DNA from: Escherichia coli O127:H6 str. E2348/69
Lineage (GTDB): Bacteria; Pseudomonadota; Gammaproteobacteria; Enterobacterales; Enterobacteriaceae
Assembly: GCF_000026545.1 (NCBI RefSeq)
Contig: NC_011601.1
Strand: one strand, 5' to 3'
DNA length: 64,000 bases
The translations under genes and the position numbers were made by a program. The notes beneath the pieces are model-generated. The model saw nothing but the letters and a program-made list of their open reading frames with translations. It was not told the origin of the DNA and ran no database searches. This document shows positions 1,873 through 17,155 of the stretch, one piece after another. How positions within the stretch are numbered: position 1 is the stretch's first letter; each line of letters begins with the position of its first letter.

Positions 1873-2637
1873 ATGAAAGATGAACGTCGCCCTATTTGCG
1901 AAGTGGTTGCAGAAAGTATCGAACGGTTAATTATCGACGGCGTACTGAAGGTCGGTCAGCCGCTTCCCTCGGAACGTCGACTGTGTGAAAAGCTCGGCTT
2001 CTCACGCTCCGCACTGCGTGAAGGGCTGACCGTGCTGCGCGGGCGCGGGATTATTGAAACGGCGCAGGGTCGCGATTCTCGTGTCGCACGGCTTAATCGG
2101 GTGCAGGACGCCAGCCCGCTGATCCATCTGTTCAGTACGCAGCCGCGAACGCTGTACGATCTGCTCGACGTTCGCGCATTACTGGAGGGCGAATCGGCAA
2201 GGCTGGCGGCAACGCTGGGAACGCAAGCTGATTTTGTTGTGATAACCCGCTGTTATGAAAAAATGCTCGCCGCCAGTGAGAACAACAAAGAGATTTCGCT
2301 GATCGAACATGCGCAGTTGGATCACGCTTTCCATCTCGCCATTTGTCAGGCTTCTCACAATCAGGTGTTGGTGTTTACACTGCAATCATTGACCGACCTG
2401 ATGTTTAATTCAGTGTTTGCCAGCGTAAATAATCTCTATCATCGACCACAGCAAAAAAAGCAGATCGATCGCCAGCATGCGCGGATCTACAACGCGGTGT
2501 TGCAGCGGCTGCCGCACGTCGCCCAGCGCGCAGCACGCGATCATGTGCGGACCGTGAAAAAGAATCTCCACGATATCGAGCTGGAAGGCCACCATTTGAT
2601 TCGCTCGGCGGTGCCGCTGGAGATGAAGCAGGGGTGA
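1873..2637 (+). CDS. glcC: GntR/FadR-family transcriptional activator of the glc operon
   Basis: ORF 1813..2637; start placed at the internal Met (MKDERRPICEV...) matching the remembered GlcC N-terminus; N-terminal GntR-type HTH. Confidence 0.9.
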   Translation: MKDERRPICEVVAESIERLIIDGVLKVGQPLPSERRLCEKLGFSRSALREGLTVLRGRGIIETAQGRDSRVARLNRVQDASPLIHLFSTQPRTLYDLLDVRALLEGESARLAATLGTQADFVVITRCYEKMLAASENNKEISLIEHAQLDHAFHLAICQASHNQVLVFTLQSLTDLMFNSVFASVNNLYHRPQQKKQIDRQHARIYNAVLQRLPHVAQRAARDHVRTVKKNLHDIELEGHHLIRSAVPLEMKQG

Positions 2638-2643
2638 CTGTCA

Positions 2644-3786
2644 TCAAATCTGCTTTTCATACAATCGGTAACGCTTGTACGGCTCCGCCCCAATGCGTTC
2701 CAGCATGTTATTCATGCCTGTATTGGTTTCGAGGATCCATGACATTTCCAGCGCATCGATCTTCCGACGGGCAAACGGATCGCGTAAGGCTTCAATCAAT
2801 AACAGCGCAATTACCGGGCCGATGCGGCTGAACTGATACTCGTCCCGCACGCCCATCAGCGGTACTCGCGCAGTTCGCACACCGCTGACTTTCAAACGCC
2901 ACAGCAATTTTGCCCAGCCGAAGGGAAAGAGCGATCCGTTCAGATCGGCAATCGCCTCGTTGATGTTCGGCAAGCCGACAATAAACGCGCAGGGTGCAGA
3001 ATCAATCTCAGCGATGTAGATCATATCGTCCGGCACCAGATATTTAAGTTGATCGCCCATGGTCGCGAATTCATGTTCGGTAAACGGCACAAATCCCCAG
3101 TTGTGCTGCCAGCCAGAATTGAAAATCTCACGCAGGATCTGCATCTCTTCGGCAAACCGCTGGCGATTGATGCAGCGAATGGTCACCTTTTTGCGCACCT
3201 GATCCATCAGTTTTTTTAGCGCCGGAGAGAAAGTGAGATCGGTTCGCTGCATCCACCACGCCAGTAAATCAATGCCTTTGTGATAACCCAGTTGTTCAAT
3301 ATGCGCGGCATACCACGGTTTGCCGTGTGGCATCATCGCACAGGGCGGAGTGTCAAAACCTTCAATCAGTAATCCGCTTTCCTGATTGATATTCAGGCTG
3401 AAAGGCCCGCTGATCTTACTTGCACCTTGTGACTTTAACCACGCTTCCGCTGTACCAAACAACGCGGCAAAAACCTGCGGATCATCAATGGCGTCAATCA
3501 TGCCGAAATGACCGGTATCTTCACCGTAACGCTCACGGTGCAAGGTATCTATTTGCGCGGTAATACGCCCAACTATCTGCCCCGCTTTTTTTGCCACCCA
3601 CGCCTGCCAGATGATATGGTCCGTCCCCGGATTCTTCGCAGACAAATGCTCGTTGCGTTCAATGAATAAAGGGGGTATCCAGTTTGGATCGTCGGGATAA
3701 AGTGATGACGGAAAAGCGATAAATGCCTTAAGGTCATTTTTATTAATTACTTTTTCAATTTTAATCATCAGCAGATCGCATTCCAT
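2644..3786 (-). CDS. yghO: YghO, full-length 380-aa form; candidate N-acyltransferase (remembered as a pseudogene in K-12)
   Basis: 380-aa intact ORF beginning MECDLLMIKIEKVINKNDLKAF...; divergent from the adjacent biosynthetic operon. Function inferred from context only; exact start (1st or 2nd Met) uncertain. Confidence 0.75.
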   Translation of the reverse strand: MECDLLMIKIEKVINKNDLKAFIAFPSSLYPDDPNWIPPLFIERNEHLSAKNPGTDHIIWQAWVAKKAGQIVGRITAQIDTLHRERYGEDTGHFGMIDAIDDPQVFAALFGTAEAWLKSQGASKISGPFSLNINQESGLLIEGFDTPPCAMMPHGKPWYAAHIEQLGYHKGIDLLAWWMQRTDLTFSPALKKLMDQVRKKVTIRCINRQRFAEEMQILREIFNSGWQHNWGFVPFTEHEFATMGDQLKYLVPDDMIYIAEIDSAPCAFIVGLPNINEAIADLNGSLFPFGWAKLLWRLKVSGVRTARVPLMGVRDEYQFSRIGPVIALLLIEALRDPFARRKIDALEMSWILETNTGMNNMLERIGAEPYKRYRLYEKQI

Positions 3787-4138
3787 AGTTCTGTGGGTAA
3801 CAAATAATTAACGGTGACAAACAGGTTGCAACAGCAACGAACGGCACCTTAACAATCAACCCAATGAATACAAACGACGAATAAATAGTATTATTAATGA
3901 TTACGATAAGGTCAGAGACTACACAGAAGCGCCTCAATGCCTTTTGTCGATTTAAGGCGACCGGACAAGGCTTCTTCTTAATATATTCATAAATTAAATA
4001 TCATTCACAAAAAAACTCAAACTCATTATTTAAATCAATGTTCATTTTCACACTGATGAAAATACTATCTCATTTATCTTTTATGCCTATATAATCCACC
4101 GCATTATTGTCATTTTATTTTGGATATCCAATTTTTTC
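3787..4138. promoter_or_regulatory. Divergent promoter region between yghO and the FAAL-reductase-ACP-AOS operon
   Basis: 352-bp strongly AT-rich intergenic region with several TATAAT-like hexamers separating divergent genes; no specific operator identified. Confidence 0.4.
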
Positions 4139-5872
4139 GTGGTGTATATGTCTAATAAAATCTTTACGCATTCCCTACCTATGCGCTATGCCGATTTTCC
4201 AACGCTGGTTGATGCTTTGGACTACGCCGCTCTGAGTAGCGCCGGAATGAATTTTTATGACAGACGTTGCCAACTTGAAGATCAACTGGAATATCAGACG
4301 TTAAAAGCGCGTGCCGAAGCTGGTGCGAAGCGGTTGTTATCGCTGAACCTGAAAAAAGGCGATCGCGTGGCGCTGATTGCCGAAACCAGTAGCGGGTTCG
4401 TAGAGGCTTTTTTTTCCTGCCAGTATGCCGGCTTAGTCGCCGTCCCGTTGGCGATTCCAATGGGCGTCGGTCAGCGGGATTCCTGGAGCGCCAAACTGCA
4501 GGGTTTACTGGCAAGTTGCCAGCCCGCAGCCATTATCACTGGTGATGAGTGGTTGCCACTGGTCAATGCCGCGACGCATAACAACAACCCCGAATTACAT
4601 GTTTTAAGCCACGCCTGGTTTAAGGCATTACCGGAAGCCGATGTTGCGCTCCAGCGTCCAGTTCCAAACGATATCGCCTACCTCCAGTACACCTCCGGCA
4701 GCACCCGTTTTCCCCGTGGCGTCATTATCACCCATCACGAAGTGATGGCTAATCTACGTGCTATAAGCCACGATGGCATTAAATTACGCCCTGGCGACCG
4801 CTGCGTCTCCTGGCTGCCTTTCTACCATGATATGGGACTGGTCGGCTTTCTCCTGACCCCCGTCGCCACGCAGCTTTCAGTAGATTATTTGCGCACTCAG
4901 GATTTTGCCATGCGTCCTCTGCAATGGCTTAAATTGATCAGTAAAAATCGCGGCACCGTTTCCGTTGCACCGCCGTTTGGCTATGAATTGTGCCAGCGCC
5001 GCGTGAATGAAAAAGATCTCGCTGAACTGGATCTTTCCTGCTGGCGCGTCGCTGGTATTGGAGCAGAACCGATCTCCGCAGAACAACTCCATCAATTCGC
5101 TGAATGTTTTCGTCAGGTTAACTTTGACGATAAAACTTTCATGCCGTGCTACGGACTGGCAGAAAATGCGCTGGCTGTCAGCTTCTCTGATGAAGCCTGC
5201 GGGGTTGTGGTTAACGAAGTGGATCGCGACATCCTCGAATACCAGGGTAAAGCCGTCGCGCCGGGTGCTGAAACACGCGCCGTATCGACTTTCGTCAACT
5301 GCGGTAAAGCGTTGCCGGAACATGGCATTGAAATCCGCAATGAAGCAGATATACCTGTCGCGGAACGTGTGGTAGGCCATATTTGCATCTCCGGCCCCAG
5401 CCTGATGAGCGGGTACTTTGGCGACCAGGTTTCGCAAGACGAGATTGCCGCGACGGGCTGGTTAGACACCGGCGACCTTGGTTATCTGCTGGACGGTTAT
5501 CTGTATGTCACCGGACGCATTAAAGATCTGATTATTATTCGTGGCCGTAATATCTGGCCGCAGGATATTGAATACATTGCGGAACAGGAACCGGAAATTC
5601 ATTCTGGCGATGCGATTGCTTTTGTTACCGCCCAGGAAAAAATCATTTTGCAGATCCAGTGTCGGATCAGCGACGAAGAACGTCGCGGGCAGCTTATCCA
5701 CGCGCTGGCAGCTCGGATCCAAAGCGAATTTGGCGTTACCGCGGATATCGATCTGTTGCCGCCCCACAGTATTCCCCGAACATCCTCCGGCAAGCCTGCC
5801 CGTGCGGAAGCGAAAAAACGTTATCAGAAGGCTTATGCTGCCAGTCTTCATGTGCAGGAATCCCTGGCATGA
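4139..5872 (+). CDS. AMP-dependent synthetase/ligase; fatty acyl-AMP ligase or acyl-ACP synthetase-like
   Basis: 577-aa ORF with adenylate-forming core motif YTSGSTRFPRGVIITH and downstream GYLYVTGRIKDLIIIRG motif typical of the ANL superfamily; stop overlaps next gene start (ATGA). Confidence 0.85.
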   Translation: MVYMSNKIFTHSLPMRYADFPTLVDALDYAALSSAGMNFYDRRCQLEDQLEYQTLKARAEAGAKRLLSLNLKKGDRVALIAETSSGFVEAFFSCQYAGLVAVPLAIPMGVGQRDSWSAKLQGLLASCQPAAIITGDEWLPLVNAATHNNNPELHVLSHAWFKALPEADVALQRPVPNDIAYLQYTSGSTRFPRGVIITHHEVMANLRAISHDGIKLRPGDRCVSWLPFYHDMGLVGFLLTPVATQLSVDYLRTQDFAMRPLQWLKLISKNRGTVSVAPPFGYELCQRRVNEKDLAELDLSCWRVAGIGAEPISAEQLHQFAECFRQVNFDDKTFMPCYGLAENALAVSFSDEACGVVVNEVDRDILEYQGKAVAPGAETRAVSTFVNCGKALPEHGIEIRNEADIPVAERVVGHICISGPSLMSGYFGDQVSQDEIAATGWLDTGDLGYLLDGYLYVTGRIKDLIIIRGRNIWPQDIEYIAEQEPEIHSGDAIAFVTAQEKIILQIQCRISDEERRGQLIHALAARIQSEFGVTADIDLLPPHSIPRTSSGKPARAEAKKRYQKAYAASLHVQESLA

Positions 5873-6783
5873 ATCAAACTGTCGCGGTGACGGGCGCTAC
5901 CGGGTTTATCGGTAAATATATTATTGATAACCTGCTCGCCCGCGGCTTTCACGTTCGCGCATTAACGCGTACTGCCCGCGCTCACGTCAATGATAATCTC
6001 ATCTGGGTGCGCGGTTCGCTGGAAGATACACATTCGCTTAGCGAACTGGTTGCCGGAGCCAGCGCGGTGGTCCATTGCGCCGGACAAGTGCGCGGACACA
6101 AAGAAGAGATTTTTACCCGCTGTAACGTTGACGGCAGCCTGCGCCTGATGCAAGCGGCAAAAGAGAGCGGCTTTTGCCAACGTTTTCTGTTTATCTCTTC
6201 GCTGGCGGCGCGCCATCCCGAACTCTCCTGGTACGCAAATTCCAAACACGTCGCCGAACAACGACTGATCGCAATGGCTGACGAAATTACGCTGGGCATT
6301 TTTCGCCCGACAGCCGTGTATGGTCCCGGCGATAAAGAGTTAAAACCGCTGTTTGACTGGATGCTGCGCGGCCTGCTGCCACGACTTGGTGCGCCAGATA
6401 CACAACTCTCTTTCCTGCACGTCACCGATTTTGCGCAAGCAGTGGGTCAGTGGTTAAACGCCGAAACTGTACAGACGCAAACCTATGAATTATGCGATGG
6501 CGTCGCTGGCGGCTATGACTGGCAACGCGTACGACAGCTTGCCGCCGAAGCCCGTTGTGGTTCTGTGCGGATGGTTGGCATTCCTCTGCCGCTACTCACC
6601 TGCCTTGCGGATATCAGTACTGCGTTGAGTCGCCTGGCAGGTAAAGAACCTATGCTGACCCGCTCGAAAATTCGTGAATTAACCCACGCCGACTGGTCGG
6701 CAAATAATAACCGTATTTCTGAAGATATTAATTGGTTTCCCGGGATTAGCCTGGAACACGCATTACGCAACGGGCTATTTTGA
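5869..6783 (+). CDS. NAD(P)-dependent epimerase/dehydratase-family oxidoreductase (extended SDR); candidate 3-keto reductase
   Basis: Start chosen at ATG 5869 (MNQTVAVTGATGFIGKYIIDNL...), giving an N-terminal Rossmann GxxGxxG motif; the longer ORF from 5659 would overlap the upstream gene by 200 bp and is rejected. Confidence 0.8.
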   Translation: MNQTVAVTGATGFIGKYIIDNLLARGFHVRALTRTARAHVNDNLIWVRGSLEDTHSLSELVAGASAVVHCAGQVRGHKEEIFTRCNVDGSLRLMQAAKESGFCQRFLFISSLAARHPELSWYANSKHVAEQRLIAMADEITLGIFRPTAVYGPGDKELKPLFDWMLRGLLPRLGAPDTQLSFLHVTDFAQAVGQWLNAETVQTQTYELCDGVAGGYDWQRVRQLAAEARCGSVRMVGIPLPLLTCLADISTALSRLAGKEPMLTRSKIRELTHADWSANNNRISEDINWFPGISLEHALRNGLF

Positions 6784-6814
6784 TTGTCTTGTTTAAAGGT
6801 GTGTTAACGTTTCT

Positions 6815-7063
6815 ATGGTAAATCGTGAAATAGTAATGGATTACATCCTTTCCTGTTTACAGGATTTGGTCGAAAACGGTGTGGAAATTAAGCCCGACAG
6901 CGATCTCGTCAACGATCTTGGCCTGGAGTCGATCAAAGTGATGGATCTCTTAATGATGCTGGAAGACAGATTCGATATTTCCATTCCTATTAATATTCTG
7001 CTGGATGTCAAAACCCCTGCGCAATTAATGGAAACTCTACTTCCATGGCTGGAGAATAAATAA
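6815..7063 (+). CDS. Acyl carrier protein (phosphopantetheine-binding)
   Basis: 82-aa acidic ORF with ACP-like motif DLGLESIKVMDLLMMLEDRF (conserved Ser attachment site); AAAGG ribosome-binding site upstream; stop overlaps next start (TAATG). Confidence 0.8.
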   Translation: MVNREIVMDYILSCLQDLVENGVEIKPDSDLVNDLGLESIKVMDLLMMLEDRFDISIPINILLDVKTPAQLMETLLPWLENK

Positions 7064-8235
7064 TGGGGCTATACGATAAATATGCGCGCCTTGCTGGCGA
7101 GCGCCTGCAATTTAGTGATAACGGGTTAACACCATTTGGCACCTGTATTGATGAAGTATATTCCGCCACCGAAGGCCGGATCGGCAATAAAAAAGTGATT
7201 CTGGCCGGGACCAATAATTATCTCGGTTTAACCTTTAATCATGATGCTATCCGCGAAGGTCAGGCAGCGTTAGCGGCCCAAGGCACTGGCACCACCGGTT
7301 CTCGTATGGCAAACGGCAGTTATGCGCCGCATCTGGCGTTAGAGAAAGAGATTGCCGAGTTTTTCAATCGCCCTACCGCTATCGTTTTTTCAACCGGTTA
7401 TACAGCTAATTTAGGCGTCATCAGCGCACTTGCCGACCATAACGCCGTGGTGTTACTGGATGCCGACAGCCACGCCAGTATTTATGACGCCTGTTCTCTC
7501 GGCGGCGCAGAGATTATTCGTTTCCGCCATAATGACGTCAACGATCTGGAACGGCGCATGGTCCGCCTCGGTGAACGGGCGAAAGAGGCGATTATTATCG
7601 TTGAAGGCATCTACAGTATGCTCGGTGACGTTGCGCCGCTGGCAGAAATTGTTGATATCAAACGTCGTCTCGGTGGTTATTTGATTGTCGATGAAGCACA
7701 TTCGTTTGGCGTGTTAGGCGTAACAGGCCGCGGACTGGTTGAAGCCGTTGGCGTTGAAGACGACGTGGATATTATCGTCGGCACCTTCAGTAAAAGTTTG
7801 GCTTCCATTGGTGGTTTTGCCGTGGGTTCAGAAGCGATGGAAGTGCTGCGCTACGGCAGCCGCCCGTATATTTTTACCGCCTCTCCTTCTCCGTCCTGCA
7901 TTGCGACCGTGCGCTCGTCGTTAAGAACCATTGCCACACAACCAGAGTTGCGGCAAAAACTGATGGATAACGCCAACCATCTGTATGACGGTCTGCAAAA
8001 ACTGGGTTACGAGTTAAGTTCACATATTAGCCCGGTAGTGCCAGTAATAATCGGTTCGAAAGAGGAAGGTTTACGCATCTGGCGCGAGCTTATTTCGCTG
8101 GGCGTTTATGTGAATCTTATCCTGCCACCTGCCGCGCCTGCAGGCATCACGCTGCTGCGCTGTAGCGTAAACGCTGCCCACAGTCGTGAGCAAATCGATG
8201 CCATCATTCAGGCATTTGCTACTCTGAAGCAGTAA
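7063..8235 (+). CDS. PLP-dependent alpha-oxoamine synthase (serine palmitoyltransferase / 8-amino-7-oxononanoate synthase family)
   Basis: 390-aa ORF with class-II aminotransferase features: HSFG motif and PLP-lysine motif GTFSKSLASIGGF. A paralogue of BioF/Kbl, but co-operonic with an ACP and an acyl-AMP ligase. Confidence 0.85.
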   Translation: MGLYDKYARLAGERLQFSDNGLTPFGTCIDEVYSATEGRIGNKKVILAGTNNYLGLTFNHDAIREGQAALAAQGTGTTGSRMANGSYAPHLALEKEIAEFFNRPTAIVFSTGYTANLGVISALADHNAVVLLDADSHASIYDACSLGGAEIIRFRHNDVNDLERRMVRLGERAKEAIIIVEGIYSMLGDVAPLAEIVDIKRRLGGYLIVDEAHSFGVLGVTGRGLVEAVGVEDDVDIIVGTFSKSLASIGGFAVGSEAMEVLRYGSRPYIFTASPSPSCIATVRSSLRTIATQPELRQKLMDNANHLYDGLQKLGYELSSHISPVVPVIIGSKEEGLRIWRELISLGVYVNLILPPAAPAGITLLRCSVNAAHSREQIDAIIQAFATLKQ

Positions 8236-8241
8236 TGTGAA

Positions 8242-8272
8242 CCCGCCGTGGTGTTGCGCCACGGCGGGTTTA
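8242..8272. terminator. Bidirectional intrinsic terminator between convergent operons
   Basis: Perfect inverted repeat CCCGCCGTGG-(7 nt)-CCACGGCGGG followed by TTTA, between the plus-strand AOS gene and the minus-strand LptG-like gene. Confidence 0.7.
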
Positions 8273-9349
8273 ATGTTGTCTGTCATGCCAATACACCAGG
8301 CTCAACGCCACCAGCACAAACGCTACCGGTAAACCGAGCGCGGTAACAGGTGCGCTCAACGCAAATAGCAATCCCAGATTGACCATGATTTGATAGCTGA
8401 TCCAGGTGAGTAAACCAACGATGACCCCTACAGCGAGACGGCTACCCATCCTAGGCGAGCGCGGGGCACTAAAGGTAAACGGCACAGCCAGCAAAATCAT
8501 CGCCAGAGTCAAGATGGGTTGCCCCAGTTTTTCCCACAGTGCAAGGCGGTATTCGCTGCTGGGTTGCCCGGTTTCCTGCAAATAATGGATGTAATGATTA
8601 AGCTGACGGACAGAAAAAGTATTTCCCGGCATCGATAACTCTTCAAGATTCATACTGGTGAAGGTCGATTGCCAGGCAAGATAATCAGATGTTTCCTGCG
8701 TTTCTTTGCCATTCAGCCATTTTTTATGATTCACACCATGCAGGATCCACGTTTTGTCATCTTCAATGGTGGCACTGCGCGCATAAATGTAGGATTCGAG
8801 CGAGAGATCATCGCGGTAATGAAATATCTCCACGTCCACCGGCTGGCCCTGCTCGTTCAGCGATTTCACCGTCACAAATTCATTACCACGCCTGGCCCAC
8901 AGCATATTGCCGGTAATGTCATCGTCCTCCCCCAACGCAGTGGCAGTCGATTTGATTTGCAGCGCCTGTTGCTGCAATGGCGACGCCACCCACTCATCTA
9001 TCGCGCCTAATGAAACAGTCCACAATATCCCGGCAACCAGCGCCACCAGTGCAATACGGAAGATAGAAAACCCCGTGCTGCGAATGGCGGTAAGCTCACT
9101 GTTTTTCGATAACTGCCCCAGGCCGACAATCCCTCCCAATAAGGCGATAAACGGCGAAAGTTCGACCAGTGTGCGCGGTAAGGTCATCAGCACCACCAGC
9201 ACCGCCTGAGTCCAGCGATAACCACCCGGGCTGACATCATCCAGTTCGTTAATCAGGTTGAAGGTGGTAAAAAGCGGCAGCAATAGCCCTGCGGCGGCGG
9301 CAAAACCGAGAAAGAGATGACGGATTAAATAGCGACTGAAAACATTCAT
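8270..9349 (-). CDS. LptG-like permease (YjgP/YjgQ family)
   Basis: Multi-pass membrane protein; start placed at Met of MNVFSRYLIRHLFLGF..., which overlaps the upstream gene stop (ATGA). Resembles LptF/LptG N-termini and topology, with a central periplasmic domain. Confidence 0.75.
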   Translation of the reverse strand: MNVFSRYLIRHLFLGFAAAAGLLLPLFTTFNLINELDDVSPGGYRWTQAVLVVLMTLPRTLVELSPFIALLGGIVGLGQLSKNSELTAIRSTGFSIFRIALVALVAGILWTVSLGAIDEWVASPLQQQALQIKSTATALGEDDDITGNMLWARRGNEFVTVKSLNEQGQPVDVEIFHYRDDLSLESYIYARSATIEDDKTWILHGVNHKKWLNGKETQETSDYLAWQSTFTSMNLEELSMPGNTFSVRQLNHYIHYLQETGQPSSEYRLALWEKLGQPILTLAMILLAVPFTFSAPRSPRMGSRLAVGVIVGLLTWISYQIMVNLGLLFALSAPVTALGLPVAFVLVALSLVYWHDRQH

Positions 9350-10416
9350 CGGGAAAATTTCTGCAGCAAAGAGAAGTCGCGTGCGACCAACATCAGCAGG
9401 CCCATTAGCATGAGTCCGGGTACTAACCACAAACCAGGAATGAGGGGAATCGCGCCGTTAGCCACCAGCGTACGGCAGACGTCGCCGCCATAAAAAATGG
9501 CAACAAACAGCAACGTCAGTGGCAATAACGTTGAAAATCGCCCTTGCCGCGGTTTTACCCGACTTAATGAAATGGCCAGCAGCGCCATCAACAATGCTGT
9601 CAGGCCACGGCTTTGTCGCCATTGCAGTTCGGCATGATCGGCAGGAAAGGCGGAGCGCGCCAGCTCCGTGACCGATTTTGCTTTGCGTTTGACGTTAGGG
9701 CTTTGATCCAGCGGATTCAGATGTAATTGCAGATTACGGTAGATCTGTTCGTTGTCGTCACGCCCCTGATGATCGAGAAGATAGGCGGTCCCGTTATGCA
9801 ACATAACGGTCGGTTTCTCAGGTGATGGGTCAACCACATCAACCGAACGGGCGCGGAAAATGCGGGTTCGATTAGCAGTAGAAGTATAAATCAGCGCGTC
9901 AGTCAGGCGATTATTATCCTGATCAACCGTCTGCGAAAGGATCATTCGTCCGTTATCGTTAGTGTTAAATTGCTTTGCCCGCAACTGGCGAACATCCAGC
10001 TCCGACTGTGACTGTTGCTCCAGTTGATAAATCTGCGCATAAGCCCACGGACGACCATACATCGACAGAAGGGTGACAAAAATACTTAGCGGTATCGCCA
10101 GATAAAGAACGGCTTTGTACAAGCGTCCCGGACTGCCCCCCGCCGCAGAGATAGCGGTAATTTCCGAGTCGGTATACATCTGCCCTAGCGTCACGCCAAC
10201 TGACACATACAGTCCAACAGGTAACAACATCTCCAGTGCAATCAGCACTTTGTAGAAAACGATATCCAGCACAACATCAAGAGCTAATGTCCCATTTGCC
10301 GCTTCGGTCAGATAACGCTGTGCGGAGTAGCTGGCGAAAATAAAGATCAGAAAACCGACGATAATCAGCACCAGACGGCGCGTACCACGCATGATGTAGT
10401 GTTCAACCAGCTTCAT
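9346..10416 (-). CDS. LptF-like permease (YjgP/YjgQ family)
   Basis: 356-aa ORF MKLVEHYIMRGTRRLVLIIVGFLIF...; hydrophobic N- and C-terminal segments with a central soluble domain, as in LptF/LptG; translationally coupled to the downstream permease. Confidence 0.75.
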   Translation of the reverse strand: MKLVEHYIMRGTRRLVLIIVGFLIFIFASYSAQRYLTEAANGTLALDVVLDIVFYKVLIALEMLLPVGLYVSVGVTLGQMYTDSEITAISAAGGSPGRLYKAVLYLAIPLSIFVTLLSMYGRPWAYAQIYQLEQQSQSELDVRQLRAKQFNTNDNGRMILSQTVDQDNNRLTDALIYTSTANRTRIFRARSVDVVDPSPEKPTVMLHNGTAYLLDHQGRDDNEQIYRNLQLHLNPLDQSPNVKRKAKSVTELARSAFPADHAELQWRQSRGLTALLMALLAISLSRVKPRQGRFSTLLPLTLLFVAIFYGGDVCRTLVANGAIPLIPGLWLVPGLMLMGLLMLVARDFSLLQKFSR

Positions 10417-10445
10417 CTCACTAACGCCCTCAATCCTTTGAATTT

Positions 10446-11009
10446 TTATTCATTGATCAGCTTCTGCGCCAGCGCAATGACATGATCTACCTCTTCCGGC
10501 GTCAGGCTGCCGTCCTTTGCCCACTGAATTTGCCCGGTTTTATTCAGCACCAGAATGGTTGAACTCTGCTCCTGCAAGTGCCAGGCAACGCGTCCCTGTC
10601 CATTGCCGTCAATAACGAATTGCGCCCATGGATAGCGGCGTTTATTTTTTTCGATTTTGCCAACGACAAAATAGCCGGTACCAAAGATGGCATCATCAGT
10701 GTTCACAATGGTGGTGGGCTGAAAACGATCCTGCGGAAAGTTTGCCGCTTCAACTGCTTTAATTAACAGTGAGTTCTTTTTCTTCGCCGACTTACGCCCG
10801 GCGATATACTGAATAATGCGAACTTTTCCTGCCAATTGGGTGCTGTTCCACTTTTGGTAGTGAATTTCGTCGTCGCTATTCCGAAGCAGCTCGCCGCCTT
10901 CCTGGATATAAACGGGGGTAACCGTTTTGCCAGTGACGAAATTGTGTGCCTGCACACCCGGGGCTAAGAGCATGATAATCAGCGCAATAATCAAACGAGA
11001 TGACATCAT
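10446..11009 (-). CDS. Secreted periplasmic protein, YtfJ-like
   Basis: 187-aa ORF with N-terminal signal peptide (MMSSRLIIALIIMLLAPGVQA); family assignment is from memory of YtfJ-type proteins, not a search. Confidence 0.5.
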   Translation of the reverse strand: MMSSRLIIALIIMLLAPGVQAHNFVTGKTVTPVYIQEGGELLRNSDDEIHYQKWNSTQLAGKVRIIQYIAGRKSAKKKNSLLIKAVEAANFPQDRFQPTTIVNTDDAIFGTGYFVVGKIEKNKRRYPWAQFVIDGNGQGRVAWHLQEQSSTILVLNKTGQIQWAKDGSLTPEEVDHVIALAQKLINE

Positions 11010-11017
11010 TGCTCCGG

Positions 11018-11842
11018 TTATAGCGGAAAACGCGAAATCAGCAGTTCTAAGCGCTGGCGAATATCGCTATCCAGCGCCATCGGTGCATCATACGACTGGC
11101 GGTTTTCCATATCATCCGCCACCATGTCGTCGTGTTTATCCCCCATCAGGCCATTAATGGCGGCGAGGAAGCGGGAAATCTGTAACGCCTCTTTATTTTC
11201 AGGATCAAGCGATCTTAAGGTGTCGTAATAAGAAACCTGCTGGCTGATGATTTTTCGCACATCATGAAATTCCCTGCCAGTTAGTTGCGGTTTAGCAATA
11301 ATCTCTTTCAGGATGTACATTTGCTTCTGGCGGTAGGCGATAAAACCGTTCACGGTTTCTAACTGGCTATGGCGCAATGAATAGTTCACCAGCCACCAGA
11401 CAGGGGAGCTCAAATAAACACGTAACAGGTTACCGTAAAACGACACAATATTTTTCTTACCGTTACGAAAGCCATCCTGAAAATGCCCAAGAAAAACGGT
11501 CGTTTTGCCGAATAAAAATCCAGCCTGATGCTTCTTTAAATACAGCCGTTGCGCAAAACGCAGATGCTTGTAGCGCGCTCGCATGTATTTAAACTGTTTG
11601 CGCTCGTCTGTCGTCAGCTCATCGCCTTTCGCCTGTTTGCGGATTAAACGCAGTAACTCCTGACGATTAACACCATCCAGCCAGAATTTCAGGCATAACG
11701 CGTAATTATCATGGATGATTTCGGTGGTACAACTTAGTGCGATAGTCGGCGGCAAACTGACCTGTGCATCAACAACATCATCTTCTTCAATCGCAACAAA
11801 TAGACGCTCGCTCGCCTCAAGCGGGAAATATTTTCTCATCAT
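11018..11842 (-). CDS. Hypothetical basic protein, operon member of unknown function
   Basis: 274-aa ORF with no signal peptide or obvious transmembrane segments; start overlaps the yghQ stop by 1 nt; no recognisable catalytic motif. Confidence 0.6.
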   Translation of the reverse strand: MMRKYFPLEASERLFVAIEEDDVVDAQVSLPPTIALSCTTEIIHDNYALCLKFWLDGVNRQELLRLIRKQAKGDELTTDERKQFKYMRARYKHLRFAQRLYLKKHQAGFLFGKTTVFLGHFQDGFRNGKKNIVSFYGNLLRVYLSSPVWWLVNYSLRHSQLETVNGFIAYRQKQMYILKEIIAKPQLTGREFHDVRKIISQQVSYYDTLRSLDPENKEALQISRFLAAINGLMGDKHDDMVADDMENRQSYDAPMALDSDIRQRLELLISRFPL

Positions 11843-13191
11843 CAGGATTTCTCTCCGGTTGAGTTATAAAGCAAGGAATGGCGCTGAAAAAATGCCTTTA
11901 AGGTCGGAATTAGCGAGAGCACCACATCCAGACATTGCCCACCGAAGTAAGCAAATGCAGCCCCCAGCACGCCAAACAGATGACAGAACATGAACAGCAA
12001 TACGATGTAGCCGATTGAGGCGATGGTTTGCGCCACGAGAAAAGCGCGCTGTTTTCCCGCCATCAATAGCAATGACTCCTGTGGGAAGCCCAGCATCGAA
12101 ATCACAATTGCGCCCAGCATCACCTGAATCAGGTCATACGCTTCGAGATACTTAACGCCAAACACCAGCGAAATGAGCGGCTTGCCGACGATCAACACCG
12201 CGAGCGCCACCAGAATACCGATTCCGCCCGCCAGTAAACCGGACTTCACGCCTAACAACCACGGTCTGGTGGTGCGTGGATCTAAACGCATCACCTCTGG
12301 ATAAAAACTTTTGCCCAGTAAACCCGCTGGCGTTCCGGCGGCATCGAAGAATGTCATGGCGATTTTAAATAACCCGACAGCAGCGGGTCCTAACACGATC
12401 CCCACCAACACTGTGCTGCACGAGTTACGCGCCGACCAGATGGAGTGGGCAATGTTGGTTGACCAGACAAAACTCCACGCGCCTTTAATGTGTCGGGCAG
12501 ACTCAAACAGATTCAATTTGAAGGCGTTATGGATATTTCTGCGGCGTAATTCGCGCGCGGCAAACCACCAGTACATGGTGCCGCCAACCAGATTCGACAC
12601 GTACCAGGCAATAACAAAACCCGCAAAACCAAAGTCAAAATACCAGGCTACGACGCTCCCCGCTGCGCGCAGAAAAGGTTTCGTCGCCTGCTGTACAGCA
12701 ATCAAATCAAAGCGATCTACCGCACGCAGAATGCCGGTCGGCGTGGAGGAAGCCATTGAAGGAATGAGCGTGCAATAGAGCGCCGCCAGCCAAAAGCTTT
12801 GGTCATCCAGACCTAATGAATGGGAAAGGAATGGCAGTAAGGCAATGCCGCCGACAATCGCCACCGCGCCGCTGACGATATCCAGCGAGAAGGAAAATGA
12901 GACAACATTGCGAAATTGCTGCGGATTATTGTTGGTCAAGGCCGGCGTTCCGTACTGGACCACCAGTTGCCATGTCTGAAACTTAATAAAATCGCTGATC
13001 GATTTGGCGTACGATTGCACAATTACCAGTACGCCAAACATGGCGGGCGTCATCCCTTTACCGGCACACGAGAGCGCCAACAGCCCCAGCAAAGCGCTCA
13101 CAACATTACTGGAGCCTAACCAGGCGCTATTGCGAATAATGGTGCGAAACGCGCCATCTGCAAACCAATGTTTGATGTTTAAACCCGCCAA
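11842..13191 (-). CDS. yghQ: Polysaccharide/lipid flippase-like inner membrane protein (MOP superfamily), full-length YghQ
   Basis: 449-aa polytopic membrane ORF; the K-12 YghQ is remembered as shorter (N-terminally truncated), and this copy appears to be the intact form. Confidence 0.8.
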   Translation of the reverse strand: MAGLNIKHWFADGAFRTIIRNSAWLGSSNVVSALLGLLALSCAGKGMTPAMFGVLVIVQSYAKSISDFIKFQTWQLVVQYGTPALTNNNPQQFRNVVSFSFSLDIVSGAVAIVGGIALLPFLSHSLGLDDQSFWLAALYCTLIPSMASSTPTGILRAVDRFDLIAVQQATKPFLRAAGSVVAWYFDFGFAGFVIAWYVSNLVGGTMYWWFAARELRRRNIHNAFKLNLFESARHIKGAWSFVWSTNIAHSIWSARNSCSTVLVGIVLGPAAVGLFKIAMTFFDAAGTPAGLLGKSFYPEVMRLDPRTTRPWLLGVKSGLLAGGIGILVALAVLIVGKPLISLVFGVKYLEAYDLIQVMLGAIVISMLGFPQESLLLMAGKQRAFLVAQTIASIGYIVLLFMFCHLFGVLGAAFAYFGGQCLDVVLSLIPTLKAFFQRHSLLYNSTGEKS

Positions 13192-13236
13192 TTCAGCCTG
13201 ACCTTATCGTTGATAGTAAAAAGTATCCCGCCAGCC

Positions 13237-13995
13237 TTAAGTTAAACTTCGGCGGTCAGAAACGATGGCAACCAGAGAAACCGCCTTCTGTGCCTGTTCC
13301 AGCACCTCGCTGTAAGGCGCTCTGGAATCAATCTCAAGAATTTTTGTGCCGTTATAGCCAATCGTCGACATGACGCCGATTTTGTCCTGCAGCTCGGCAT
13401 AGTCATGGTCAGGCTTGCGGGAGATGGCAGTATCAATATCAATCCCCAAGCGAATGATTAATTCAGGACGGTATTGCGCCATTTGTTGGTATAAGCGCCG
13501 TTCGCGCTGCGCCAGAAACATGCTGATTTTCCCGGTCGCACGTTCGACGCCGATCCCCGGTCCGTCATAATAAAAGCCCGAAATTTCAGCCTGCGGGAAG
13601 CGATCGCTGACCACCAGAACGCCACTTTGCGCCAGTCGCTGAACCTTGCGCAGATTCGCCATTCTTCGCAGCGAGAAGCAGTACATAATCACCGCCGCCC
13701 ATAGCGCCGGAGATTTGGTTTTCATGCTTTGGGTTTTCGAGGATTTGGCCGCCAGTCGCCGTTCCAGCCAGACGCCAACCAACGGCAACCGTTTGATTTT
13801 GTCGCCGTCTTCGCCTGAGAGCAGCCCCAGATAGCGGCGCTCGGTTTGCCAGTGTTGTTGCAGCGATTTCACCAGGTCAGTGGTCAGTGTGGATTTACCG
13901 GTGCCATCACACCCGACCACCGCAATCAGCCCCGGAATGTAGTTGGGCTGCGGCGCGGTTGTACTCTTAACAGTTTGTGTTTGTAGTGCATCCAT
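13237..13995 (-). CDS. yghR: P-loop NTPase, kinase-like (YghR)
   Basis: 252-aa ORF; Walker A GCDGTGKST plus VVSDRFPQ (DRY/F-like motif of nucleoside/nucleotide-kinase-fold proteins); paralogue of the next two genes. Confidence 0.85.
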   Translation of the reverse strand: MDALQTQTVKSTTAPQPNYIPGLIAVVGCDGTGKSTLTTDLVKSLQQHWQTERRYLGLLSGEDGDKIKRLPLVGVWLERRLAAKSSKTQSMKTKSPALWAAVIMYCFSLRRMANLRKVQRLAQSGVLVVSDRFPQAEISGFYYDGPGIGVERATGKISMFLAQRERRLYQQMAQYRPELIIRLGIDIDTAISRKPDHDYAELQDKIGVMSTIGYNGTKILEIDSRAPYSEVLEQAQKAVSLVAIVSDRRSLT

Positions 13996-14026
13996 TCGTT
14001 AAATCATCCCCTATCCATTTTGGTGA

Positions 14027-14740
14027 TCAGGAAAGCGCGGCGTGAATTGCGCGTAGTGACGCTTGCAGAATTTCATCGGCTGGTTGCCGACCATCCAGTT
14101 CAAGGATCTTTGCGCCATTGAATGTCAGTTGCGGCGTAACGGCGATTTTTTCCTGTAACGCTGCCAGTTGGTGGTCAGGTTTACGCGCAAACGCGGTTTG
14201 TTCATCAATGCCAAGACGAATCAACAATACGGGCAAATAAGACGCCATCCATTGGTACAGCTTCAGCTCGCGCTGCCTTAACATTTTTATCCAACCGTTA
14301 CCGCCCGTGGTTTTTGCCAATTGCGGGCCATCAAAGCGAAAACCCGGCACTTCAACCTGCGGGTAGCGGTCGGTGATGAGCAGATAGCCTTGCTGGCTTT
14401 TACACAACATTTTGCGAAACTTGTACGCCCGCCAGCAGGAAAGCAGATAGATAACCAGCGCAGTAATATTGCCAGGCGGTGTTAAGGGCTTTTCGTGCAC
14501 ATGTGCCGCTTTACTTCGCAAATAACGCCCAAAAGGTGCGCCAATAACAGGGAGCTGTGAAATCCATTCGCCAATTCGCCCGGACGATTGCCCGAGATAA
14601 ATGTGTTCTGTTGGCATTCTTGATGCCAGTTCATTTACCAGGCTTGCCGTGAGGGTCGATTTACCTGAACCATCACATCCTACAATGGCAATAACACGCA
14701 CTGGCGTGGAATTAATTATTGACATATTACGTTGATTCAC
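14027..14740 (-). CDS. yghS: P-loop NTPase, kinase-like (YghS)
   Basis: 237-aa ORF; Walker A GCDGSGKST and LITDRYPQ motif; paralogue of YghR and YghT. Confidence 0.85.
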   Translation of the reverse strand: MNQRNMSIINSTPVRVIAIVGCDGSGKSTLTASLVNELASRMPTEHIYLGQSSGRIGEWISQLPVIGAPFGRYLRSKAAHVHEKPLTPPGNITALVIYLLSCWRAYKFRKMLCKSQQGYLLITDRYPQVEVPGFRFDGPQLAKTTGGNGWIKMLRQRELKLYQWMASYLPVLLIRLGIDEQTAFARKPDHQLAALQEKIAVTPQLTFNGAKILELDGRQPADEILQASLRAIHAALS

Positions 14741-14914
14741 GAAAAACCCGGCAGCAAATAATGTATTGAATATTACGTGGTCCGTGCTCAGAATATCCGT
14801 TCAACCTTATTGTGACAATGGTTAATTGTGACATTGACCTGAATTACGCTTTCATCAAAAACATATTAACCAAATAAATATTTTGGATGGACATTTAAAT
14901 TTAAGGATATATTC

Positions 14915-15607
14915 ATGCAGTCAATAATACCTCCATTAATTGCCGTTATTGGTAGCGATGGTTCAGGCAAGTCAACGGTGTGTGAACATCTTATTACCGT
15001 TGTCGAAAAATATGGTGCTGCCGAAAGGGTTCATTTAGGAAAACAGGCCGGAAATGTCGGTCGTGCAGTGACAAAATTACCGTTGATGGGAAAATCCTTA
15101 CATAAAACAATTGAACGAAATCAGGTAAAAATAGCAAAAAAATTGCCGGGACCAGTTCCGGCGCTGGTAATTACAGCGTTTGTCGCCCGCCGCTTACTGC
15201 GCTTTCGTCATATGCTTGCCTGTCGTCGTCGCGGGTTAATTGTTTTAACCGACCGTTATCCGCAGGAACAGATTCCTGGCGCTTATGATGGTACGGTGTT
15301 CCCGCCTAACGTTGAAGGTGGTCGTTTTGTCTCATGGCTGGCAAGTCAGGAACGTAAAGCATTTCACTGGATGGCGAGCCATAAGCCCGATCTGGTCATC
15401 AAACTCAATGTCGATCTGGACGTAGCCTGCGCGCGTAAGCCTGACCACAAAAGAGAATCGCTGGAAAGGAAGATAGCAATAACGCCACAGTTAACCTTTG
15501 GAGGCGCGCAACTGGTTGATATCGATGCCAATCAACCGCTGGAACAAGTGCTGGTTGATGCGGAAAAAGCGATTACGGATTTTATGACCGCGCGTGGTTA
15601 TCACTAG
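14915..15607 (+). CDS. yghT: P-loop NTPase, kinase-like (YghT)
   Basis: 230-aa ORF; Walker [10 protein letters not shown] and VLTDRYPQ motif; divergently transcribed from yghS. Confidence 0.85.
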
Positions 15608-15655
15608 TCAAAAATGGAAATGCCCGATCGCCAGGACCGGGCATTTTCAGGAAGG

Positions 15656-17155
15656 TTAAATCAACTGCAATGCTATCCAGTACAACCCACCAGAAAGAAA
15701 AATCGCCGCCGGTAAAGTAAATACCCACGCCATCAGGATGCTGGTTACCGTTTTACGCTGTAACCCACCGCCGTCCACCACCATCGTCCCTGCTACTGCA
15801 GACGAGAGTACGTGTGTTGTGGAGACGGGCATCCCAATATAACTGGCAAGGCCGATAGACACTGCCGCCGTCATCTGTGCCGCCATGCCTTGCGCATACG
15901 TCATGCCGCGCTTACCAATCTTCTCACCGATGGTCATCGCTACACGACGCCAGCCAATCATGGTGCCGATGCCGAGCGCCAGTGCTACCGCCATGATGAT
16001 CCATACCGGTGCGTACTCAATGGTGCTTAACATATCGCTGCGCAGTTTTTTCAGCAGGTTCTGGTCTTCTTTACTGACGCCTGGCAGTTTCGCCAGCTTC
16101 GCGGAGGTATCAGAGATGCACAGCATAATGCGGCGCAGCTGGCTGCGCTGACTCACGCTTAACGGCTCGTAACTTTCCATATTGCCTGGCAGCATCGTTT
16201 TAACGCGCGCAATCGCATCAAAGGTATTTGCCGGATGACAGTGAAACTCTGTTACTTGCGTGCCATCAGTCGATGTCGCAGGCAATGGAGGTTCCATCGT
16301 AATCAACTTCTGCGGCAGTTCAGGATGCTGTTGCAGGTAGTGTTCGAAGTTGGTGACGGCATCGCGGGTACGGGTAATTTCATAGCCGGACGCATTCATA
16401 TTGACGACAAACCCGGCGGGAGCAATCCCCACCAGCACCAGCATCACCAGACCAATTCCTTTCTGCCCGTCGTTCGCGCCGTGCGAAAACGCCACGCCCG
16501 CAGCGGAAACAATGAGGGCAATACGCGTCCAGAATGGCGGCTTACGTTTGCCTTTTTTCTTTTGGCGATCTTCCGGAATGCGGTGAATACGGTCACGCTT
16601 TTTCGTCCCGCTCCAGTAGCGACGCAGCAGAAAAATCAGCCCCCCCGCAATCACCAGCCCCACGATGGGGGAGACAATGAGTGAAGAGAAAATCTTGGTG
16701 ACTTCGCGCAGGTTTAACGCATCCATCACCGACGAACCATTTAACAGCGCGTTGGTTAAACCGATGCCGATAATCGCACCAATCAAAGTGTGCGAACTGG
16801 AGGCCGGTAAACCAAAGAACCACGTTCCCAGATTCCAGATAATCGCCGCCAGCAGCATGGAAAAGACCATCGCCAGACCGTGAGTTGACCCCATATTCAG
16901 CAACAAATCGGTTGGCAACATATGGACGATGGCATAGGCAACGCTAAGCCCGCCAAGCAATACGCCAAAAAAGTTAAAAAATGCCGCCATGACTACAGCA
17001 AGCTGTGGTTGCATGGCACGGGTATAAATAACGGTTGCCACCGCATTCGCTGTGTCATGAAAACCATTGATTGCTTCATAGAACAACACAAATGCCAGAG
17101 CAAGTAATAACAAAAGCCCCGTATATATATCAAGGCCAACAAATAAATTTAGCAT
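15656..17155 (-). CDS. pitB: Low-affinity inorganic phosphate transporter PitB
   Basis: 499-aa polytopic ORF recognised as E. coli PitB (PiT family). Confidence 0.9.

Follow-up and report, generated by a model that had tools for sequence, protein, structure and literature searches.

An operon beside yghO in Escherichia coli E2348/69 very probably encodes the entry module of bacterial sphingolipid synthesis

Bacterial sphingolipid (ceramide) synthesis is known from alpha-, beta- and gamma-proteobacteria, and in Caulobacter crescentus it is encoded by the cluster CC_1165-CC_1162 together with CC_1154, which supply AasR, CerR, AcpR, Spt and bCerS. Two groups working on Caulobacter disagree on whether N-acylation or reduction comes first. 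This bacterium also carries cpg head-group genes, including one for a ceramide kinase of the LCB5/diacylglycerol (DAG)-kinase type, and its LptF2/LptG2 proteins have been proposed as sphingolipid exporters (PMC11324152), a role that the Caulobacter literature also proposes for a flippase. Here, we compare these systems with a locus of Escherichia coli O127:H6 str. E2348/69, the prototype enteropathogenic E. coli (EPEC) strain, within a window of 64,000 nucleotides from contig NC_011601.1; all coordinates are those of this stretch. The operon under study (4139-8235; 4,097 nt) comprises four co-oriented, intact genes on the plus strand, aasR, cerR, acpR and spt, in the same order as in Caulobacter and with no internal stop in any open reading frame (ORF). 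We conclude that it is very probably the entry module of a sphingolipid pathway of the proteobacterial type. The operon itself is already known, its locus, gene functions, biochemistry and the crystal structure of its first gene product all being in the literature.

The nearest described relative is this locus as it occurs in E. coli BL21(DE3), named by Padilla-Gómez 2022 as ECD_02851 (aasR), ECD_02852 (epi), ECD_02853 (acpR) and ECD_02854 (spt), next to yghO (ECD_02850), an N-acyltransferase gene and aca homologue (PMC9386255). Gene order and neighbours are shared between the two strains, and the differences are limited to strain-level substitutions and the aasR start, which the Prokaryotic Genome Annotation Pipeline (PGAP) sets at Met12 in BL21. 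The E2348/69 proteins are identical to their BL21 counterparts at 549 of 562 residues for AasR (97.7%), 291 of 304 for CerR (95.7%), 384 of 390 for Spt (98.5%) and 82 of 82 for AcpR, which has the same accession in both (WP_000248097.1). In that study, the E. coli AcpR takes up beta-alanine, a precursor of phosphopantetheine, and co-expression of the E. coli AasR, AcpR and Spt yields a lipid whose migration resembles that of 3-oxo-sphinganine (PMC9386255). Furthermore, the E. coli Spt incorporates L-[14C]serine and prefers palmitoyl-AcpR, tested with the Caulobacter carrier, over palmitoyl-CoA or palmitoyl-AcpP, and the Caulobacter AcpR is not acylated by the E. coli AasR (PMC9386255). Sphinganine-like and ceramide-like spots also appeared in BL21, which the authors attributed to chromosomal ECD_02852 and ECD_02850 (PMC9386255).

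A second line of work has dealt with two of the same proteins under other names. According to Patil 2021, the fatty acyl-AMP ligase (FAAL) EcFAAL transfers [14C]laurate in an ATP-dependent manner to the holo form of the acyl carrier protein (ACP) EcACP and not to its S39A variant, and the supplementary data credit it with almost no acyl-CoA formation (PMC8460268). The primers given there map exactly onto the present locus (EcFAAL forward primer, 4148-4175; EcACP primers, 6815-6838 and 7043-7060), with the S39A primer matching 6910-6965 apart from the intended change T6929G, and EcFAAL and EcACP are therefore the products of genes 1 and 3 of the operon. In the portions of that paper available, the pair is treated as a generic FAAL-ACP model and sphingolipid synthesis is not mentioned; likewise, the words ‘sphingolipid’ and ‘AasR’ do not occur in a 2025 FAAL review. 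An initial annotation of this stretch, made from its letters alone, had proposed an acyl loading-and-condensing module with a private ACP, independent of AcpP, and these assays on E. coli proteins bear that proposal out. Moreover, the experiments that it had suggested as checks already have published answers: acylation of the holo-ACP by the ligase (PMC8460268), PLP-dependent (pyridoxal 5'-phosphate) condensation with serine by the BL21 Spt, and phosphopantetheinylation, the last through beta-alanine labelling of the identical protein (PMC9386255).

In the proposed mechanism, AasR would adenylate a free long-chain fatty acid and hand the acyl group to the phosphopantetheine on Ser39 of AcpR rather than to coenzyme A (CoA). 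Spt, with PLP on Lys244, would then condense acyl-AcpR with L-serine to form 3-oxo-sphinganine, CO2 and holo-AcpR, after which YghO would N-acylate the long-chain base and CerR would reduce the 3-keto group, giving dihydroceramide. A private pair of ACP and ligase may in this way divert free fatty acids from beta-oxidation and phospholipid synthesis. The first two steps have been shown experimentally by others, on an identical ACP and on enzymes that are 98-99% identical; selectivity against CoA and AcpP has been measured directly for the Caulobacter AasR only.

The assignment of AasR to the FAAL type draws on two observations, namely that it passes the NCBIfam FAAL model NF006624 (867 bits against a cut-off of 600) and that all 574 of its residues align with PDB entry 3PBK at about 98.6% identity. 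This entry is the EcFAAL crystal structure with lauroyl- and myristoyl-adenylate bound and is the reference FAAL structure in which the FAAL-specific insertion and the blocked CoA pocket were defined. The most likely start of aasR is ATG 4148, because the PGAP annotation of E2348/69, the 3PBK construct, the published cloning primer and N-terminal conservation agree on it. The N-terminus MS..(T/I)HSLP(M/L/I)RYADFP recurs in other Enterobacterales, and the position of Met12 is occupied by Leu or Ile in Erwinia and Rosenbergiella. Two other candidates, GTG 4139, which is simply the furthest-upstream possible start, and ATG 4181, are less likely in view of the 3PBK construct, the primers and the conservation. 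The span 4139-8235 given by the initial annotation was hence right in its gene content and probably too long at its first codon. Annotated starts of aasR vary between strains: PGAP has ATG 4148 for E2348/69 but, for BL21(DE3), the codon that corresponds to ATG 4181, and database entries for AasR range from 562 to 577 aa.

The carrier protein contains the sequence DLGLESIKVMDL, in which the motif DLGLESI places Glu38 directly ahead of the phosphopantetheine-bearing Ser39. Glu instead of Asp at this position had been noticed at the outset and is plainly present in the sequence; the further idea that it may mark a dedicated carrier does not hold up in the comparative set, for which one genome per species was scanned with an Spt alignment, the best 80 loci were kept and their ORFs were searched with the E. 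coli island proteins. The 81 ACPs linked to spt have Asp ahead of the Ser in 51 cases, including the Caulobacter AcpR with its canonical Asp-Ser, as opposed to Glu in 18, Ser in seven, Thr in four and Asn in one. All 18 Glu-type ACPs come from Enterobacterales or Pseudomonas, and because Glu is restricted to this branch, Glu38 is best seen as a lineage trait and no marker of the family. Nor is Glu38 a barrier to phosphopantetheinylation, since it was the identical BL21 ACP that took up beta-alanine.

The condensing enzyme is identified by its passing the serine palmitoyltransferase (SPT) equivalog NF047599 of NCBIfam (597 bits against a cut-off of 500). This is the ‘BetaP’ SPT equivalog, and the E. 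coli Spt does not belong to the ‘AlphaP’ or ‘CFB’ ones. Among PDB entries, it comes closest to the SPTs of Sphingomonas, 2JG2 and 2X8U (E ~1e-111), and its residues His137, Asp210, His213, Lys244 and Arg366 align with His159, Asp231, His234, Lys265 and Arg390 of 2JG2. The PLP fold and the catalytic His/Asp/His/Lys/Arg set are common to E. coli Spt, the Sphingomonas SPTs and those of Bacteroidetes and delta-proteobacteria. In some database entries the protein goes under the name 8-amino-7-oxononanoate synthase, which would make the operon a second biotin-type (BioF-like) system condensing pimeloyl-ACP; yet the bioF model TIGR00858 gives 334 bits, under its cut-off of 426, the ligase was crystallised with C12 and C14 acyl-adenylates and not with pimelate, condensation with serine has been shown experimentally (PMC9386255) and the neighbourhood holds no bio gene, leaving this explanation with a negligible probability. 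The initial annotation had named a lack of acyl transfer to this ACP and an exclusively BioF-like condensing enzyme as the outcomes that would speak against it, and the reverse has been found on both counts: the transfer was seen, serine was condensed and the bioF cut-off was failed.

Serine is not the only conceivable co-substrate of such an enzyme, given that alpha-oxoamine synthases are versatile. A different alpha-amino ketone had been raised as a possibility in the initial annotation, and the product could in principle be a 1-deoxy base made from alanine or glycine, a sulfonolipid precursor made from cysteate, or a CAI-1-like signal. Arg378 of the Sphingomonas SPT helps to hold the serine carboxylate. 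In the E. coli Spt, Leu354 takes the place of this non-universal residue of the Sphingomonas paucimobilis enzyme, inside an otherwise conserved ‘PPAxPxG’ loop, and cysteate acyltransferase and CqsA are found among the PDB neighbours, albeit at much lower scores. Against such a product, the SPT equivalog is the only one that Spt passes, with the CqsA model NF005526 (225 bits against 428) and the Kbl model (298 against 460) failing their cut-offs as bioF does; the E. coli Spt puts L-[14C]serine into a lipid co-migrating with 3-oxo-sphinganine (PMC9386255), and the genes that stay with spt across loci, yghO/bCerS and cerR, belong to the ceramide pathway. We thus consider another alpha-amino ketone highly unlikely and 3-oxo-sphinganine the expected product.

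Two unusual relatives of Spt were encountered. One (P0198) is a 794-aa fusion with its Spt domain at residues 399-785. The other (P0122) is a 443-aa entry in which Pfam finds an ACP domain (PF00550) and an aminotransferase domain; it comes from a eukaryote-labelled source, shares 97% identity with the E. coli Spt and is probably either a gene call that reads through the TAATG junction of acpR and spt or bacterial contamination of that dataset.

The two remaining proteins of the proposed pathway were placed largely by comparison with Caulobacter. CerR carries the motifs GATGFIG (GxxGxxG) at residue 9 and YANSK (YxxxK) at residue 122. In the Caulobacter locus of the comparative set (L083), where the published gene order CC_1166 to CC_1154 is reproduced and a flippase gene and lptF/lptG paralogues lie nearby, the E. 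coli proteins find homologues with identities of 54% for Spt, 44% for AasR, 44% for YghO (E 7e-110, against the bCerS-position gene), 43% for AcpR, 34% for CerR (E 1.6e-37, to the gene in the CC_1164 position, between aasR and acpR) and 27% for YghQ. From this homology, from synteny and from the sphinganine-like and ceramide-like spots seen in BL21 by thin-layer chromatography (TLC), we infer that CerR and YghO act as the reductase and the N-acyltransferase of the ceramide pathway in E. coli. PGAP names the product of yghO simply ‘protein YghO’, and in most loci the gene adjoins aasR. The four gene assignments of the initial annotation have held, while it had missed yghO as the fifth gene and had not recognised the start of sphingolipid synthesis. 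For comparison, the PGAP labels of the four genes read fatty acyl-AMP ligase, NAD-dependent epimerase/dehydratase family protein, acyl carrier protein and spt (serine palmitoyltransferase).

The arrangement of the four genes is itself conserved. In Enterobacterales, spt loci were found in Escherichia, Pseudocitrobacter, Hafnia, Shimwellia, Tatumella, Mangrovibacter, Erwinia, Citrobacter youngae, Pluralibacter, Cedecea, Rosenbergiella and Serratia, and further loci came from Pseudomonas, Xanthomonadales, Nitrosomonas, Nitrosospira, Nitrospira, Geobacter, Desulfobacterales, Gemmatimonadetes and Caulobacter. Of the 65 loci with all four genes, 61 have them in the colinear order aasR-cerR-acpR-spt, usually with a yghO homologue divergent upstream and often with lptF/lptG paralogues close by; in Sphingomonadaceae, unlike in E. 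coli, aasR lies far from acpR-spt.

As the initial annotation had described, the genes of the E. coli operon are tightly joined. The aasR/cerR junction is an ATGA at 5869-5872, with the cerR ATG at 5869 and the aasR TGA at 5870-5872; cerR and acpR are separated by 31 nt (6784-6814); and acpR and spt overlap by 1 nt in a TAATG at 7061-7065, with the acpR TAA at 7061-7063 and the spt ATG at 7063. Overlaps of 1 or 4 nt are in themselves ordinary operon features, since they occur at five of the 13 junctions between same-strand neighbours in the 22 kb around the operon. Across many phyla, however, at least 55 of the 61 colinear loci keep a spacing of -14 to +3 nt between acpR and spt, a lower bound because the start-codon heuristic misplaced a few starts, and the ATGA overlap of aasR with cerR is seen again in 13 loci, mainly of Enterobacterales, Pseudomonas and Xanthomonadales. 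Stop-start overlaps, most of all the one at acpR/spt, are thus conserved, as would be consistent with translational coupling of the carrier to the condensing enzyme.

At the 3' side, the only long hairpin of the operon region in our consensus scan lies just downstream of spt and is likely a bidirectional terminator that marks the operon end; terminator-like matches within the operon have stems of 5-8 pairs only, and the overall number of matches is not above that of shuffled sequence. On the 5' side, no convincing plus-strand sigma-70 promoter upstream of aasR emerged from the consensus scan of the AT-rich region shared with yghO. An Rfam search of positions 2500-16000 (E<=1) returned two sub-threshold chance matches and found no known riboswitch or leader in that upstream region.

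Several points weigh against the assignment to sphingolipid synthesis. The product of the E. coli Spt has been characterised by TLC co-migration, mass spectrometry having been applied to the Caulobacter proteins only (PMC9386255), and the published activities derive from over-expression. Our literature search turned up no sphingolipid described from unmodified wild-type E. coli. Furthermore, CerR gives only generic matches to the short-chain dehydrogenase/reductase (SDR) family, all below their NCBIfam cut-offs, YghO matches no Pfam or NCBIfam model and the amino-acid preference of the E. coli Spt could differ in detail, because Leu354 replaces Arg378.

The same gap in the literature would be expected if the cluster were cryptic, with enzymes that are active when over-expressed, an operon that is silent or nearly so and no sphingolipid accumulating in nature. 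The lack of a clear promoter in the AT-rich upstream region would fit such silence, as would the loss of the locus from K-12, which still grows as a laboratory strain after its IS5-associated deletion, and its absence from about 23% of complete E. coli genomes. The operon span has matches in 4,183 of 5,426 complete genomes, though, with coverage of at least 80% in 4,067 of them, and all 13 genes of the surrounding island are intact in both E2348/69 and BL21. The ratio of nonsynonymous to synonymous substitution rates (dN/dS) between these two strains is 0.04-0.17 for the operon genes and the neighbouring lpt paralogues (acpR is identical and allows no value), which points to purifying selection, and the island is syntenic over several enterobacterial genera. 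Additionally, the sphinganine-like and ceramide-like spots arose in BL21 when only AasR, AcpR and Spt were supplied, implying expression of chromosomal cerR and yghO. On balance, a cryptic cluster appears unlikely to us. Most natural E. coli strains, the EPEC prototype among them, carry an intact sphingolipid-starter operon under purifying selection.

Table 1. Features of the operon and its surroundings in the E2348/69 window
Feature	Coordinates	Strand	Assignment	Basis
aasR	4148..5872	+	EcFAAL; fatty acyl-AMP ligase / AcpR-specific acyl-ACP synthetase, 574 aa	NCBIfam, 3PBK, BL21, primer
cerR (‘epi’)	5869..6783	+	Extended-SDR NAD(P)-dependent reductase, probable 3-keto reductase of the ceramide pathway, 304 aa	Motifs, BL21, Caulobacter homology
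acpR	6815..7063	+	EcACP; dedicated acyl carrier protein, 82 aa	ACP family matches, BL21 identity, primers
Ser39 codon of acpR (TCG)	6929..6931	+	Phosphopantetheine attachment site, after Glu38	Alignment with the DSL serine of solved ACPs
spt	7063..8235	+	Serine palmitoyltransferase, PLP-dependent alpha-oxoamine synthase, 390 aa	NF047599, PDB matches, BL21
Lys244 codon of spt (AAA)	7792..7794	+	PLP Schiff-base lysine	Aligns with Lys265 of 2JG2
yghO (‘aca’, ECD_02850)	2644..3786	-	Divergent partner gene; probable bCerS-type N-acyltransferase	Caulobacter homology, synteny
Intergenic region	3787..4147	.	Divergent, AT-rich, 361 nt; presumed promoters of yghO and the operon	Read from sequence
Hairpin	8238..8272	.	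G+C-rich long hairpin, 16-bp stem, between convergent spt and lptG paralogue	Terminator scan and sequence
Second lptG copy	8270-9349	-	Not part of the operon	NCBIfam
Second lptF copy	9346-10416	-	Not part of the operon	NCBIfam
ytfJ-like gene	10446-11006	-		PGAP, NCBIfam
274-aa hypothetical gene	11018-11842	-	1-nt overlap with yghQ	PGAP
yghQ	11842-13191	-	MOP-type flippase (PGAP ‘lipopolysaccharide biosynthesis protein’)	PGAP, NCBIfam
yghR	13237-13995	-	P-loop protein	PGAP, NCBIfam
yghS	14027-14740	-	P-loop protein	PGAP, NCBIfam
yghT	14915-15607	+	P-loop protein	PGAP, NCBIfam

The operon lies inside the 13-gene block from yghO to yghT, of about 13 kb (Table 1), and is flanked in the PGAP annotation by glcC-yghO on one side and, on the other, by convergent lptG, lptF, a YtfJ-family gene, a hypothetical gene, yghQ, yghR, yghS, yghT and pitB. 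The lptG and lptF paralogues, which are second copies of lipopolysaccharide (LPS)-export permease genes, exceed their NCBIfam equivalog cut-offs, scoring 305 bits with TIGR04408 and 320 bits with TIGR04407, overlap each other by 4 nt and run convergently with spt; LptF/G paralogues also occur near spt in many unrelated bacteria. By analogy with LptF2/LptG2 of Caulobacter, the E. coli pair are candidate permeases for sphingolipid extraction or export. The rest of the block (10446-15607) keeps its synteny with spt in nine of the other 14 loci from Enterobacterales; two more have only the kinase genes, and parts of the block flank spt in Luteibacter and Dyella.

Where Caulobacter has its cpg genes, E. 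coli has the P-loop proteins YghR, YghS and YghT, the 274-aa helical protein and the YtfJ-like protein. YghR, YghS and YghT are paralogous, nucleotide-kinase-like proteins whose genes lie beside the spt cluster not only in Enterobacterales but also in Luteibacter, Dyella and a betaproteobacterial metagenome-assembled genome (MAG). None of the three received a specific family assignment in NCBIfam, and YghS matches Pfam as a P-loop protein only. They may modify the head group. They were rejected as counterparts of the Caulobacter ceramide kinase CpgB, because CpgB belongs to the LCB5/DAG-kinase family and a search of locus L083 detected no YghR/S/T homologue; E. coli has the three P-loop paralogues instead of a CpgB-type kinase. 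The 274-aa protein has no Pfam or NCBIfam match, is conserved, many of its Arg, Lys and His positions being invariant, and is modelled by AlphaFold as an all-helical bundle (mean predicted local distance difference test score, pLDDT, 91.9). A Foldseek search of the PDB matched it weakly to the polyphosphate-binding CHAD domain (E 0.2; template modelling score, TM, 0.49), too weakly for a call on function.

These neighbours raise the tentative possibility, which we put forward as a conjecture rather than an expectation, that the operon is the biosynthetic core of an island natively making an undescribed sphingolipid, which a private MOP flippase and LptF2/LptG2 would carry to the outer membrane. 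Its head group might be phosphorylated, a suggestion prompted by the three P-loop kinase-like paralogues and the helical protein with its faint CHAD resemblance. Novelty in this system would lie in what wild E. coli makes natively with it and in how that product is exported; our search found no report on an outer-membrane sphingolipid in wild E. coli, the conditions for it or its effects on host interaction or on resistance to antibiotics or detergents.

In K-12 MG1655, positions 3747-12122 (8.4 kb) are missing and IS5 (insH9) stands in their place. This deletion cuts into yghO and yghQ, taking the start of the former and the 3' end of the latter, and it removes in full the operon, the two lpt paralogues and the ytfJ-like and 274-aa genes, so that the sphingolipid-starter operon and the adjoining second copies of the LPS-export permease genes are all absent from this strain. 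If the island does make a sphingolipid natively, the IS5-associated loss could explain why E. coli has been viewed as sphingolipid-free. Because the deletion removed the yghO start and the yghQ 3' end, the yghO and yghQ genes of K-12 are truncated remnants of the island.

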